From the NCBI GenBank assembly GCA_028534125.1, contig CM052816.1, positions 82,524,001-82,588,000 of the forward strand: a DNA stretch of 64,000 nucleotides, read 5' to 3'. A program made the position numbers and the translations under genes. How positions within the stretch are numbered: the first letter of the stretch is position 1; the number at the start of each line of letters is the position of its first letter. This document shows positions 3,250 through 61,199 of the stretch, piece after piece. Source of the stretch: Lama glama (Eukaryota). The notes below the pieces were generated by a model. That model had not been told where the DNA came from, searched no databases, and was given only the letters and a program-made list of their open reading frames with translations.

Positions 3250-5733
3250 GGCATATGCATTCTGGGAATTTAGCAGGAGATTAACATTCAAAAATCAATC
3301 AGTGTAATTTACCATGTTAACAGGATTAAAGAGAAAAATACATGGTCATTATAATAGATGCAGAAAAGGTATTTGATAAAATTCAACACCTTTTCATGAT
3401 AAAAACTCTTAGCAGACTAGGAATAGAAAGAAACTTTCTCAGTTTGATAAAAGATATCAGCAAAAACCCACAGCAAACATCCTATTTAATGGTTAAATAT
3501 TAAAAGCTGCTTTTTGAGACAAATGAGATAAGAATGCCACTATCACGACCTCTATTCATCACTTTTCTGGAGATCTTAGCCAGTGCAATGGGGTTAAATA
3601 AATAAATAGGAAAAGTATTAGAAGAGAAGAAAAAAATTGTCATTATTTGCATATGATACAATTTGGAAAAACTAGTAAAATTGATTAGTAAATTCTGCAA
3701 TGTTTCTGTATATAATATTAATATAAACATCAAATTTATTTCTAAATATAAGCAAAATTTGGAAAATGAAAATTATATACTGATAACTTTTAGAATAGCT
3801 TTAATATACATCAATTACCCAGGAATAAATTTAACATAAGATATGCCAACTATCTACAAACAAACCTACTAGACAGGAAAGAAACTAAAGAGGATTTAAT
3901 AAATGGAGAGAGGTACCATATCCCTGGATTGTAAGATCCAATATTGTAACAATATCAAATATACTCTAGTTGATTTATTCATTTAATGGAATTTCAGTCA
4001 AAATTTCATTCTTTTTTTTTTCTGGTGGAAATTGACAAGCTGAATCTAAATTATATATGGAAAAGCAAAAGACCAAGAATAGAAATGATCTTGAAAAATA
4101 ATACAGTGAGAAATCTTATATTGCCAAATACCTTGACTTACAAAACTTAAGTAATTCAATAATTATTCAGAACTTAATGAAGTAAGAATAGATAAATAAA
4201 ACAGCACACTTCACCCTGTTATAGTCACTTGAATTATGAGAAAGTTCCCTTTCAGTGCAGTAGGAAAAAAATGTTCTTTTCAATAAATGGTTCTAGGTCA
4301 ACTGGACATCACAGGAAAAAAAAAAAGTAAATCTTGAGGCTTACCTTAAATGATTAAGAAAGAAATCATGTCTCTGTGAAATGTAGTTCTAAATGTAAAG
4401 GTAAAACTCTATTAAAGCTATACATCTTCTGAAAGGTAACAAATGGGAATATCTGTGATTCCAGAATTGATAAATACTTTTTTAGTTGGCTACCAAAACC
4501 CTTGGTATGAAAGTAAGTCTCCTAAAGTGAACTTTATTAAAATTGATTACTGACGTTCATTAAAAGTCACCAGTAAGAAAGAGAAAAGTCAAACCACAGA
4601 GTGGAAGGCTATGTTGGCAATACATAAATCTGAAAAAGAACTCACATCAGGAGTATGCAGAGAGCCTCTTTAAATCATTAAGGAAAATACGGACAATTCA
4701 GTTTGAAAGTAATGGGTAAAAGTATTGAAGAGTCACTTTGCAAAAGAAGATATTCAAAAGTCCAATATGCACATACGAAGTTGCTCAACATCATTAGTCA
4801 TCAGAAATTCAAATTACAAAATAAAACAGGTTTCTTCTATATAGCACAAGGAACTATATTCAATGTCTTTTAATAACATTTAATGAAAAATAATATGAAA
4901 ACAAATATATATATATGTATATGCATGACTGGGACATTGTGCTGTACAGCAGAAATGGACACATTGTTACTGACTGTACCTAAGTTTAAAAAATTAAAGA
5001 AATTCAAATTACAACCCAAATGAGGTAATATGAAAAATGAAGCAGAATGAATTAACTTAAAAATGAAGTTAAAAATTTTAAAAACTGAAAATGGAAATTC
5101 TTGATGAGGATATTGAGTAAGTAGAACTCTTCCATTCAGATGGGGGTTATGTAAAACAAACCAGCCACTATGGAAAATTGTATGGAAATATCTACTAAAA
5201 CAGAGCATTTGGGTGTACACATCCTATGACCCAACAATTCTACCAAAAGCATATACCTAACAGGAAAGAAAACCTGTGTGCACACAATGATATGTATGGG
5301 AATGTTCAGAAGAGCGGCTTGAGACATGGTATGACCAATTCATATAAAGTGATGTGAATCACCAAACAGAAATGCCACTGGAGGCACTTGTGCTATGCAC
5401 AACATCATGGATAAATTTTGCAAACATAATGTGAAGTAAAAAGAAGAGTCATAGAAGACTAGGCACAGAAGAGATCTTTTTCTGTACAGATCAAAACCAA
5501 AGAGATAGTAGGCAGCCTACTGGTTATATTTTGGAACTAATGTAATAGCTCGAGCAGACAGGAAGGCCGATTCTGTGATGCTGGAATTGTTCCATTTATT
5601 CTTCAGAGTGGTGAACACATGGGTGTGCTCACTTCATGATAATTTATCAAGCTATACATGTATACTTTGCTCACCTTATAGTGTGTAGAAAACACCTTAG
5701 TAAAATGTTTATTTTATTAAAAAAGAAAAAAAA
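3250..5733 (+). mobile_element. Old LINE-1 (L1M/L1ME-type): degraded ORF2 plus 3' UTR and A-rich tail
   Basis: Typical L1 ORF2 RT-region text (3355 'atagatgcagaaaaggtatttgataaaattcaacacc'), ORF2 C-terminal motifs ('ctcaacatcattagtcatcagaaat'), an L1ME-like 3' end and an A tract at 5719-5733. Many stops and indels. Confidence 0.9.
4820..4997 (+). mobile_element. Severely 5'-truncated young (cetartiodactyl/camelid-type) L1 3' end nested in the older L1
   Basis: 'tatagcacaaggaactatattcaa...gctgtacagcagaaatggacacattg' 3'-UTR text, flanked by an exact 17-bp TSD agaaattcaaattacaa at 4803-4819 and 4998-5014. Confidence 0.9.
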
Positions 5734-7190: not shown

Positions 7191-7384
7191 TAAATAGATG
7201 AAAAAACAAATTTCTTTTGTAAAGCACAGGGAACTACATTCGATATCTTGTAGTAACCTATAATGAAAAAGAATATGAAAATGAATATATGTATGTATAT
7301 ATATGACTGAAAAATTAAGCTATACACTAGAAATTGACATATTATAACTGACTATACTTCAATACATTTAAAAAAAAGAAAAAA
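7191..7384 (+). mobile_element. Young L1, non-inverted 3' end and poly(A) of the same twin-primed insertion
   Basis: 'aaagcacagggaactacattcgatatcttgtagtaacctataatgaaaaagaatatg...actatacttcaat' followed by an A tail. The A-rich aaaaaagaaaaaa flanks both ends (about 5719-5731 and 7372-7384). Confidence 0.88.
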
Positions 7385-14869: not shown

Positions 14870-15660
14870 TATTTTAAAATAATACTTACTTTTTCTACTT
14901 TTTTATGTCTAACATACAAACATAACTTTCTTCTTAGAAAATTTAGTAATTATAGAATGATATAATGCAAAAGAAAATTGGTCAATCGGAATTTTATCAT
15001 TGAGAATTTTAAAAAGTTAACATTTTGGTTTATATATTTCCAGATTTGTGTATAGATACAGCTTTAAAATATAGGTGCTATGCAGTAATGTTTTATAACC
15101 GATTGCTTCCAATAATAATATAAGTACCTCCTAGGTTATTAGATGTGTTTTAAAATGCCTTTAAAATTGCATCTTTATAACCGATTGCTTCCAATAATAA
15201 TATAAGTACCTCCTAGGTTATTAGATGTGTTTTAAAATGCCTTTAAAATTGCATCATGTTTCTTTGTATGCCTGTATCAAAGTGTTTTTTTAACTTCCTA
15301 TTTTTTTCATTTAGATTACCTACTACTTTTGCATATGAGTAGGCTTTCAAACTATCTTTGTTCAACGCAAAAATAAATTTGTACTTTTTTGTATCTGAAT
15401 TAACTGCATGTTTTTTATACATTATCTTTTGTGTTACTTCTCAGGCATATTTTTGTAGGCTGTGGATTTATAAGAACTAATTTTATATTGAGGTTATTAG
15501 CACTATATCCTAATATTACCAATATTTTTCTTAGTTTGTAATTTATCATTTAATTTCTTTTTGATTTGTAAGTTTAAAAATTGTATATTAAAATATGTTA
15601 TTTTTTTTTATGATATGTACATTTTAGTATTTAGAAATGCCTTTCTCGTACTAATCTGAG
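14870..15660 (-). mobile_element. Highly degraded old L1 fragment
   Basis: T-rich antisense L1-like text ('ccaatatttttcttagtttgtaatttatcatttaattt', 'tttagaaatgcctttctc'). Confidence 0.45.
15092..15255 (+). repeat. Perfect 2 x 82-bp tandem duplication
   Basis: 15092-15173 and 15174-15255 are identical (tttataaccgattgcttcc...ctttaaaattgcatc). Confidence 0.97.
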
Positions 15661-56520: not shown

Positions 56521-56932
56521 GAAAGCCAGCTGGGATCATGGTTTAAATATGTCAATATGTCATCCTGACAGAAGAAAGCCTTTTTTTTTTTCAATTGGTG
56601 CTCTGGTGCAGCTAATTGAAAAGTTTAGGATCTGACGGTCCTCATATGAATCATGTTATTATTGGGGTGATTCTAATCATGGGCATATAAACAATGGTGA
56701 AAAACAGGAGGAACAAACTGACTTTTCCTCAATATTTGGAAAACAAAGATCCTTGATAGCAAAGAGAGTCTTAGGAATTATGAATATTTAGGAGTTGCCT
56801 AAATAGAAGTTATTATAAGATAGATACTCTGAGAAATGTTTTACATTTATTATCTCAATTAAAAACCAAGGTGGTTTTATGATGTGCTGTCAATCAAACA
56901 TGGCTATTTTCTCTCAGGTTTTAAAAAGATGC

Positions 56933-57310
56933 TGTTGCCCCACCGAATAAGGGTCCTTCTGCCCAGTGTCACTCACACCAGTAGAATGAGAATGAGTTCG
57001 TTTCAGAAGCAAAGGGAAGCTTTATTCTTTGATCAGAGAATGGAGAGGTGCTGGGAGCTTGCGCTCTAAAGTCCCTGCTCCCCTCCCCAGGTGATGCGCG
57101 GGGCTGCTTCACAGGGCTCCATCAGCAGGGAGGGGGCAGGGTTCTGGTGGGGCGGGCACAGGGGTGCTACTCAGGCTCCAGATGGCAGTGCCAGGAGCAG
57201 CAGCTCTGCACATGGCCGCCTGCCGCCATCTTGGACCGGGTGTCGTGCCGCAGCGCTTCTGCAGATGGTCCCTGAGGTGAGGTGTCCCTGCAGCCATTTT
57301 GCACTGGGAA
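56933..57310 (-). mobile_element. CpG-rich LTR-like element (probable ERV solo LTR; family not identified)
   Basis: The minus strand ends ...ggggcaaCA, with AATAAA (57021-57026) about 90 nt upstream. The U3-like region has a GC box (57149-57157) and YY1 motifs (57222-57233, 57291-57301). The right boundary and TSD are unresolved. Confidence 0.55.
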
Positions 57311-57948
57311 CGCAGGTCTGAAAGTGCCTGGGGCAAGACCTCTGCATGGGGCACCCTGTGAGCAAGTGAAACTAGACTAAAGCACAAAGGGAAAGAAACG
57401 GTTAGACTTTATTACCACGTGTTCTGTGTGTATTCCTTGGGAATTGTTAATGTGCTTTGCTGGTGACAATACTACCTATTGTTTTCACTTTTTGTTTAAG
57501 TAGTTAGTAAATTGTCTCAACACCATTTATTATTCATTGTCTTTGATTTAAAACATTGTTCCTAATATATACTAATGAATGTTCTACACCTGGCTTAGTT
57601 TATGCACTTTTCATCTCATGCCTGTGATTTATCTTTCTGTTCTGTTTGTGTACTCACTTACTATTTAAAATATATTAAAACTTATTATTATGATTTCTAA
57701 GTCATAATTAGAAAATCTATTGACTTTTGGAGGTATTATATTCTCTCCAGTTTGCTTATAAAACTCTCTTAGTAATTATGATAATTTCTACTTGATTTTC
57801 TTGGGTTTTCAAAGCAGCATATCATATCCTCTATGAATAATGATAAATGGATACTCTCCTTTCTAAAACGTAAAGTTTATTTTTATCTTTCTAGCTTGGC
57901 TAGAACGTCTAAAACGGTATTGAATAGTGAAAGTATCAGTGGGCATTC

Positions 57949-58204
57949 TTTTTTTAAATATATTTATATTGAAGTATAGTTGGTTTACAATGTTGTGTCA
58001 ATATCTGGTGTACAGCACAGTGCTTCAGTCTTATAGGAATATACATATATTTGTTGTCATATTCTTTTTAACCATAAGTTGCTGCAAGATATTGACTATA
58101 GTTCCCTGTGCTATACAGCATGAACTTGTTTATCTATTTTATATATAGTAGTTAGTATCTGCAAATCTCAACCTCCCAGTTTATCCCTTCCCATAGCCTT
58201 CCCC
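57949..58204 (-). mobile_element. Young (camelid-type) 5'-truncated L1 3' end
   Basis: Antisense 3' UTR 'ttgaagtatagttggtttacaatgttgtg...atagttccctgtgctatacag...gttagtatctgcaaatctcaacctcccagtttatccc', with the T tract on the left. Confidence 0.92.
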
Positions 58205-58240
58205 CACTTCCTGGCCTTTTGGCCAAGATCAAGTGTAGTA
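58205..58240 (+). pseudogene. RNU2: U2 snRNA 5' fragment (nt 3-38), 3'-truncated retropseudogene fused to L1
   Basis: cacttcctggccttttggccaagatcaagtgtagta versus U2 CGCTTCTCGGCCTTTTGGCTAAGATCAAGTGTAGTA is 32/36 by hand, with two mismatches being CpG transitions. It ends exactly at the GTAGTA branch-point recognition sequence. Confidence 0.9.
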
Positions 58241-61199
58241 GGCATTCTTTTTTAATGAGAATATGTTTTAAAATTAAACATGCCATTGGTTATTGATCTG
58301 AGATATGTAGAATAATCTGTATACTATTAATAATAAATTCTGATATGTTAGAATGTTTTAATTTTAAAAATTTATTTACTTTTATTATATGACTTTTGGG
58401 TCATTAACAAAGATGATTTTTTTTCCTTTCCTACCTGCTGAAATGGTTAATAATAGTAAGAATATTACATTTCAAACAACCTTGAAAGAAAATTAACTTA
58501 GTCATGGGGTTTTATTATTTTAATGTATTAGTTGGATGGATTGTCTAGGAATGAAATTTTCTGTCATTGCGTTCTCTTTTCTGATGGTATCGAAAGTCAC
58601 ACTAGTGAAATGAATTATAAAGCTTACACTCTTATATGTTCTGGAACTCTGGAAATACTATTTGAAGATTTTGAAAGAAGTAATTGATAAAAAATTTTGT
58701 GTCTAGCAACATTTTGGGGGCAAACTCATTGATCAAAAATTTCTTAATGGCTTTCAAATTTTAGTTTTCTTATTGAGTTACTTTTTGGTTGTTTATATTT
58801 TCCCATATCTTTTTCATGTTAATTTTTAAATATACCAGCAAGATATTCTTTCCATCTGCAGACAGAAGATTTAGTTTAGTTTCTTGTGTATTTGTATTAT
58901 CTTTCTTTATTAGATTTTCCAAAGGATACTCTATTTTATTGCTCCTTTTTATAATTTAATTTTTAGTTATTTTCTAATTTATAAACTCTACTTTTAATTC
59001 ATGGAATTATTTAGCTTATCTTATTCTAACTTCTTGACTTAAAATTTTATCTCAATTATTATTTTCCTTCTAGAGTAATAACTACAACATTGACAGATAT
59101 AATCATTAATTTAAATATGGTTTGGTCTGCATTTCATATGTTTTAATCTATAGTTCTTAATTTTTAGAGTCTATAGTGCAACTTTGATTTCCTCTTTAAA
59201 ATTTAGATGGTTTATTTGAAGTATCACGTAGCCTCAACCATTAATTGTGTCTCAGAGACAAAATGGGAAGGTGGTCCATGGGAAGGGGTCTGGCAGGAAC
59301 AGAGCAGTGCCTGCTGTTCTAGGACAAGATGAAAATACTAGTCCTCTTATCCAGAACTAATGGAAAAGCCTAACTACCCAAATGCACCATGAGGTTTGCT
59401 TTAGGATATTGGAAGAAACTAAATCTTACAAGATAACTTATACATAAACTTAACCACTGCCTTGAGCACAAACCTACACACACTGTCTTAAACCACTTTC
59501 CATAAAAGACCAAAGGGAGAGGCAATAGCTAAGACAGGAAAGCTGTTTTCTAAAGGCTGCTTAGTAAATCATTCCTTCAAACATAATAATAAAAGGAAGC
59601 CATATCACTGAAAAGAAAGCAAAAGTTCTTATCAAAGTACATGCCTCCCATGTGTTTTATGTGTGTGGATTAAATTCTTTCCAGCATACTACCATTTGTG
59701 TTGACATTATCCCTTAGAAATCTTTCTCTTCTGAAAATACACATTTGGTAAGAAAAACTGAGTCAGTGATTTGTGCATATATAAATCACTTCATTCTTTC
59801 TTTTGGAGGCAATTTCGGTCTGAAAGCCTCCATTGGAAAAAATAAATAAAAAAATAAATGAAATTAAAATAAAAAGGGAGAGTAGAAAAGTTAGAAGACA
59901 TAGCCCAAATGACAGTAAATGTTAATGGTCTGATCACACACCAAAAATTGTCCTTCAAACCGAAGTGTGTATTAAATAGTAATGGATAGATATACTTCTC
60001 TGTGAGATCTGATTTGTCTAGCAAATCCTTACTGACATATACTCTCATTTACTACTATATAGCCTTTTGAAAATGCCATTCCAGCAGAGCATAAAAAAGG
60101 TTATTTAGATTAAGTATAGTTACAAGATAAGCAGTATACTGAGTTCATTGGACTTCATGCACACTCATTTAATTTCCCCCGCTCCATTACTCTGAATCAA
60201 ACTGTCCCTGAAAGAACAAGAGGAAGGAAAAGGGCATTAAAAAACACAAATCACAAAGTAGAGAACATTCTTCTTAAAAACGAAATGGTCTCCATGTGTT
60301 ACCATTTAATACCATGGAAATACTTTCTTGACTTTTATAGCATGCAGAGAAACTGCACCAATCTATTAAAGAATGCAATAAAAAAAAGTCTTTGAGGTGG
60401 GTTAACATTTTCCAGGTCTTTATCATTCTAGATGGGCTTGGAACTTCAAAACACTGTAAAATATTATAAATGGTATCCACTTGCATCTGTGTGCAGCTTA
60501 TGGCATAAGGAATGCATGACCACTTAACCGTTTATTGAATACGGGAAGAAATACGAGGAGACCTTCGGTGATATGTTTTAAAACGAGGCCCAAAGCCAGG
60601 CTCTAAAGACAGACAGAGTGCCAAAGCGGTTTATCTTCTCCTTTATCCTTTTAACTTTAGTGCCATTAAGTGCCAGGATGAGGCTTTTTGGACTTCATTT
60701 GAAATTCAAGTAATTAATAGAACCGGAGAAAATAAGTTCTAGAGGGCTAGGTATTGTGATAAAGTATAAACAAGAAAGGCCTGAAGTTTAGAGGACAGAA
60801 AATGACAGTGCAAGTAATAAAAGTTATACTGGGGGTTTAAGTAATTGTTAAGACCTTTCACATGTTCCGTTTGCATTTGACAGTGGCTGAACTTTATTAG
60901 CCTTTAATGGCCTTCATTAAATTATATTTGGTATCTAAGAGGCTATGCATTGAATGGGGAGCATGAGGATGGTCTCCTTTACCAACGTACATACCTCAGC
61001 TAAGGAGGTATGACCCTCAGCATCTTGTTTTAGGGAATAGCATGCTTTCTTTACTATTTCAGTGGAGAAACGGCAATTTTTATAGATTTTTTTCTCAATG
61101 GGCTCCTTCCCAGTAACATTTAAACAGTCTCTATCTTTGAAAAAAACAAAAAATTCCCTCATTAACTCTTCGTCTTCCAACAGTTATTTACTGCCCTAA

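Follow-up and report, generated by a model that had tools for sequence, protein, structure and literature searches.

Inverted fusions of a small nuclear RNA with a retrotransposon have been described in the human genome. In Doucet et al. 2015 (PMC4476161), 3'-truncated copies of U1, U2, U5 and U6 lie opposite to an L1 or SVA within one target-site duplication (TSD). The cleavage site is canonical when read in the L1 orientation but not in the other, and the authors propose that two RNAs took part in twin priming. This inverted type (Group IV) makes up 7 of the 30 repeat-associated copies, and inverted U2/L1 accounts for 1 of the 58 characterised human U2 copies. The latter case, row 2 of their Table S1 ("U2_3'trunc-L1, L1-twin"), has an L1 of 1457 nt, a TSD of 14 nt, a truncation at nt 55 and 2 nt of homology. 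The authors of the published model describe the mechanisms as inferred from structure and still in need of experimental tests.

In Law & Burns 2026 (PMC13174262), the antisense class is extended in hg38 to 5S rRNA and tRNA, antisense U2/L1 and U5/L1 are present too, and twin priming is again proposed. By our own count of their rows, U2 and L1 are on opposite strands in 9 of the 13 U2/L1 rows of Table S2 and in both rows of Table S3. The 11 inverted U2 pieces in these rows end at nt 53-66 (nine rows), 107 and 169, with none at nt 33-39. U6/L1 chimeras, formed by RNA ligation or template switch, are of another kind, with a full-length U6 that is in the L1 orientation in 98.3% of cases according to the same source. 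Tailless retrocopies, with internal priming and no poly(A), are covered by Noll et al. 2015 (PMC5322556), and Kojima 2010 (PMC2912911) reviews twin priming, in which microhomologies occur both at the ends and at the inversion junction.

We observed an inverted U2/L1 chimera at positions 57938-58253 of the window, which is the whole 64-kb stretch of DNA analysed here and forms part of contig C1 in an assembly of 2.35 Gb. It begins with the left TSD copy (strict core 57942-57954, extended form 57938-57954), which overlaps a run of seven Ts (57949-57955, minus strand), all that is left of the poly(A)/priming tract of the L1. Next comes the last ~250 nt of the 3'UTR of a 5'-truncated L1, on the minus strand (57955-58204). 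This adjoins a 3'-truncated U2 copy on the plus strand (58205-58240), running from nt ~3 (or ~11) to nt 34-38 and starting with an ambiguous join (58205-58214). The right TSD copy (58241-58253) closes the structure, and its extended form (58237-58253) overlaps U2 nt 35-38. The first-pass annotation had described a minus-strand L1 3' end joined to plus-strand U2 within one TSD, with the U2 piece ending at the branch-point recognition sequence, and this observation holds. No function is evident for the chimera, which is a dead retrocopy.

As in the chimeras of Doucet et al. 2015, an snRNA truncated at its 3' end faces the opposite way from a 5'-truncated L1 to which it is directly joined, with an outer TSD only and the cleavage site on the L1 side. 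The locus differs from the human U2 case described there in being non-primate, with an L1 of ~250 nt, a TSD of 13-17 nt and a U2 truncated at nt 34-38. U6/L1 chimeras, in the portions of the literature cited above, also have an snRNA fused to the truncated 5' end of an L1 within one TSD. However, their snRNA is full length and nearly always sense, whereas the U2 here is truncated and inverted, so the two parts do not share one orientation. The novelty implied by the first-pass annotation is not supported, with both structure and mechanism already published (Doucet et al. 2015; Law & Burns 2026). Searches of a largely open-access literature turned up neither an account of this locus nor one from a camelid.

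The direct repeat at the two ends is identical at 16 of 17 positions in its extended form and at 13 of 13 in its core, and the core is present only twice within the 64 kb. At 4000 random window positions, a repeat of at least 16/17 located 200-400 nt upstream was never found (0/4000), which bears out the claim of one direct repeat at both ends. The TSD is either 13 nt long, in which case the primer of a U2 copy reaching nt 38 would have ended in two mismatches to nt 39-40, or 17 nt long, with a 3-nt match to U2 nt 35-37 and one later mutation at 58240. The snRNA/target homology at the priming junction is 0 nt in the first case and 3 nt in the second, compared with 1-5 nt for published cases. 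Position 57941, in the left copy, is the second base of a codon that an alignment pairs with a proline of ORF2p, so the left copy probably retains the pre-insertion base there. Six of the seven Ts of the run lie within the TSD; only one is outside it, and no real poly(A) tail is left at the L1 end.

The endonuclease consensus scores 6/6 in the L1 orientation, at 58253/58254 on the plus strand (the end of the right TSD copy), versus 2/6 in the U2 orientation. This score agrees with the TTTT/AA first nick proposed earlier for the L1, in the L1 orientation only. A separate TSD around U2, which had been named as evidence against a single event, was looked for directly beside the U2 piece and not found. 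The best adjacent repeat there scores -1, against at least 7 in 92 of the 104 other short U2 copies examined in this genome.

The L1 part (57949-58204) is 86-90% identical to the best 29 genome copies, obtained by fetching 30 of the 40 listed matches, one of which was the locus itself. One copy (L007) extends into the ORF2p C-terminus (residues 1158-1273, E 2.7e-31), and as the family continues into this region, the enclosed piece is an L1 3'UTR in antisense. A SINE sharing the L1 tail was considered and rejected, because the family runs into ORF2. Set against the majority base in each column of the 29 closest copies, the L1 part shows 16 differences over 235 positions (6.8%), a value that is low, if anything, because the copies were picked for their likeness to the locus. 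The copies themselves diverge from this majority by a median of 6.0% (range 3.4-8.6%). The L1 had been called young, which is right only in relative terms: it is younger than two other such L1 ends in the window, but at ~7% divergence it is not recent. These two older 3'UTR ends (4815-4963 and 7192-7376) belong to the same lineage, are on the opposite strand and are 74-76% identical to the L1 of the chimera.

Among the fetched L1 copies, two pairs of identical loci are arranged in inverted orientation, each pair on one unplaced contig (L023/L024 on C82399, L025/L026 on C11148). These are either inverted duplications or assembly mirrors.

For the U2 part, the Rfam U2 model (RF00004) gives a match from 58203 with an E-value of 4.7e-6 and 40.1 bits, under the gathering score of 46 because the piece is a fragment. 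At the gathering level there were no Rfam matches in the 64-kb window, and no tRNA genes were found in it either. Aligned to the genome's own U2 (L034), nt 3-38 are identical at 32 of 36 positions, with differences at nt 4, 9, 10 and 22, the first and third of which fall in CpGs. Over nt 11-38 the identity rises to 27/28. In a predicted fold of nt 1-70, made for naked RNA, nt 34-46 are unpaired. The U2 end at nt 34-38 thus falls inside a segment predicted to be single-stranded, as in the truncated snRNAs of the class of Doucet et al. 2015. A proposal that the 36-nt piece could belong to the camelid L1 consensus was rejected, since it is absent from the fetched L1 copies, which carry other sequence where the window switches to U2.

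The first-pass annotation had the two parts joined directly. They do adjoin, but the boundary is not sharp: 58205-58214 form a 10-nt ambiguous zone that can be read as U2 nt 3-12 (7/10) or as an L1 C-rich tract, matched by the L1 copies at 4-8 of 10 positions. The last five bases are carried exactly by 5 of the 25 L1 copies in which the motif was found. The bases shared with L1 copies would explain the U2 mismatches at nt 9-10. The U2 share therefore starts at some point from nt 3 to nt 11-13. The ends of the two cDNAs could have annealed in this stretch, and the hybrid join may preserve them in that annealed form.

The best explanation, to which we give a probability of roughly 80%, is twin priming on two RNAs in a single L1 target-primed reverse transcription event. 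The L1 endonuclease would nick the plus strand at the T-tract/AA site (58253/58254), and the freed T-rich end would prime on the 3' A-tract of the L1 RNA, of which ~250 nt would be copied. A second nick on the minus strand, 13-17 nt away, would yield a second 3' end. This end would prime internally on U2 snRNA at the single-stranded nt 34-38, with copying toward the U2 5' end. The two opposite-strand cDNAs would then be joined in the pyrimidine-rich zone of L1/U2 resemblance (58205-58214), and gap filling would generate the TSD. In this order of events both parts would have arrived simultaneously. Such a two-template event had been proposed in the first-pass annotation and is supported by the one outer TSD, the lack of an inner TSD, the endonuclease site on the L1 side, the truncation in single-stranded U2 and the similar divergence of the two parts (6.8% for L1; 4/36 for U2, two of these at CpGs).

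The U2 piece also resembles tailless U2 retropseudogenes, which according to published accounts (PMC5322556; PMC4476161) share internal priming in single-stranded U2 and the lack of poly(A). Such retropseudogenes are flanked directly by a TSD of their own and start from the first nick, whereas the U2 of the window has a TSD in common with L1, which fits the second nick.

We compared the locus with other U2 retrocopies of the same genome. A 26-nt U2 pattern with up to two mismatches gave at least 262 matches, and the same pattern read backwards gave none. From the listed matches, 109 U2 loci were taken; five long copies were set aside, leaving 104 short ones. Their 3' ends are at nt 33-39 in 95 and at nt 48-61 in nine, in a sample that is biased, with ends before nt 33 invisible and ~40 loci coming from a pattern that selects nt-35 ends. 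An adjacent TSD, as scored by script, is present in 92 of the 104 and absent in 12. For the 87 stand-alone copies with a TSD score of at least 9 (17 were dropped), the endonuclease site is better in the U2 orientation in 51, tied in 23 and better on the other side in 13, by at most 2 points. A 4-point gap against the U2 orientation, as at our locus, occurs in none of the 87.

These data bear on the strongest alternative, that of two successive insertions. The L1 and its TSD would have come first, followed by a tailless, TSD-less U2 placed at the very boundary of the L1 5' end with the right TSD copy; or, in the reverse order, a TSD-less L1 would have joined an earlier U2. U2 retrocopies beside or inside repeats are common, and a library repeat lies within 25 nt upstream in 8 of the 104 short copies. 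One copy (L159) even shares both the L1 3'UTR region and the orientation of the window's U2, and the 12 copies without a scored TSD would provide a precedent for the missing duplication. However, 7 of the 8 repeat-neighbouring copies have their own TSD, and the repeat resumes downstream in five. In these five (L110, L147, L148, L154, L159), U2 is inside an older repeat that continues after it, with a script-scored TSD in four. Unlike in them, the repeat at the window locus does not resume beyond U2. Successive insertions would also require a TSD-less event at one exact boundary, next to an endonuclease site that is poor in the U2 orientation (2/6), and the L1 and U2 parts show alike divergence. 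We consider this explanation unlikely.

Several copies in the survey deserve mention in their own right. L110, L147, L154 and L159 are tailless U2 copies nested in older L1-type sequence. L159 (G000:C1:55304162-55304482) is near the same 3'UTR position as the join of the window, but it has its own 9-nt TSD and the L1 resumes. L139 (G000:C6:5292320-5292640) is a tailless U2 with a 9-nt TSD, 8 nt of which correspond to U2 nt 29-36; for a priming homology this is unusually long. Five short copies (L065, L072, L150, L156, L162) have no recognisable TSD within 1.5-2 kb and are possibly insertions with target deletion.

A second inverted U2/L1 chimera was not recognised among the 104 other short copies (out of at least 262 matches), in a scan covering ~185 nt upstream at most loci with a repeat library of the 29 fetched L1 3'-end loci. 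The 12 TSD-less copies were inspected individually, together with L066, which scores weakly, and with L138 and L139, which do have a TSD; four were examined again at 2.2 kb. L072, L171 and L172 were rejected as chimeras: their distant repeats of 10-14 nt are mostly AT-rich, no L1 adjoins U2, and we take them as chance. With no second case among 104 copies, the inverted U2/L1 class is rare in the surveyed genome, as it is in human.

The first-pass annotation had pointed to a match between the target and U2 nt 35-47. The counts are right, with 8/13 for the left TSD copy and 9/13 for the right, but they are weak evidence, because T-rich endonuclease sites often reach this level. Of the 233 TTTTAA sites in the window, 91 reach at least 8/13 to U2 with free TSD length and register, 22 with a 3-nt lead and 4, including the right TSD copy of the locus itself, in fixed register. 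Among the 87 stand-alone U2 copies, five do so. The match is largely a by-product of a T-rich endonuclease target; it is compatible with priming and no proof of it.

This weak complementarity, together with an ambiguous join that looks like microhomology, is what can be said for another single-event explanation, in which U2 was taken up while the L1 5' junction was being repaired, rather than primed from the second nick. Either a free U2 cDNA or DNA fragment would have been end-joined, or copying would have jumped onto an antisense U2 template. The piece begins at or near the U2 5' end, though, and stops at nt 34-38 like most stand-alone primer-initiated copies in our biased sample. In the human class as published, the inversion is consistent and it is always the 5' end of the RNA that meets the L1, an arrangement not expected from random patching. 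We regard such a capture as somewhat less probable still than successive insertions. An assembly artefact or a chance resemblance to U2 is very improbable: the sub-threshold Rfam score and a junction taken from the assembly leave some room for it, but the 27/28 identity over nt 11-38, the absence of backwards matches, the single-copy flanks and the combination of TSD and endonuclease site, which misassembly would not create, all oppose it.

Two-RNA twin priming thus remains the preferred reading. As a clean case from outside the primates, the locus illustrates a rare L1 pathway, so far deduced from structure, by which two different RNAs are reverse-transcribed during one integration. Its occurrence here suggests a pathway that extends beyond the L1 of primates. 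No new mechanism follows from it, and where or when U2 meets the L1 complex is more than one locus can tell.

The end of the U2 piece in the branch-point recognition region (nt 34-38) is the same as in most stand-alone U2 copies of our genome sample, and unlike all 11 inverted human rows counted above from Law & Burns 2026. The difference may stem from what RepeatMasker-based lists detect, or may reflect a genuine distinction between priming at first and at second nicks. Tentatively, and with more doubt than confidence, we suggest that short chimeras are under-catalogued or that the two nicks normally sample different parts of U2. If they do, inverted versus stand-alone end-points would be a genomic footprint of the state of the U2 particle at second-strand priming.

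Regarding the host sequence, a translation of 57691-57954 (minus strand) in which X replaces each stop aligns with human ORF2p over residues 659-742 (E 3.1e-9). Judged by this match, the chimera inserted into an ancient piece of L1 ORF2, from the reverse-transcriptase region and full of stops. The fragment appears to span 57440-57954 on the minus strand, perhaps reaching ~59200, of which the match covers 57691-57954 only. By eye, the host ORF2 could plausibly continue into the right flank. No L1 match to it was obtained in PDB, Pfam, BLAST to the fetched loci or the genome search; Pfam gave no match for the left flank either, and the stop-free 23-aa piece matched repeat proteins only.

Both flanks are single-copy in assembly searches, and the insertion could serve as a presence/absence marker. 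Of the 24 listed read runs, 20, which come from 8 studies and carry 5 organism labels, contain 0.83-0.92 of the words sampled from 56900-59400, a word content that is uninformative on whether the insert is present or absent.

Within the otherwise AT-rich region, ~56930-57400 is a GC- and CpG-richer stretch, which by eye looks similar to an LTR-type element. Elsewhere in the window, 15092-15255 hold a perfect tandem duplication of 82 nt (100% identical), which is either a recent duplication or an assembly artefact.
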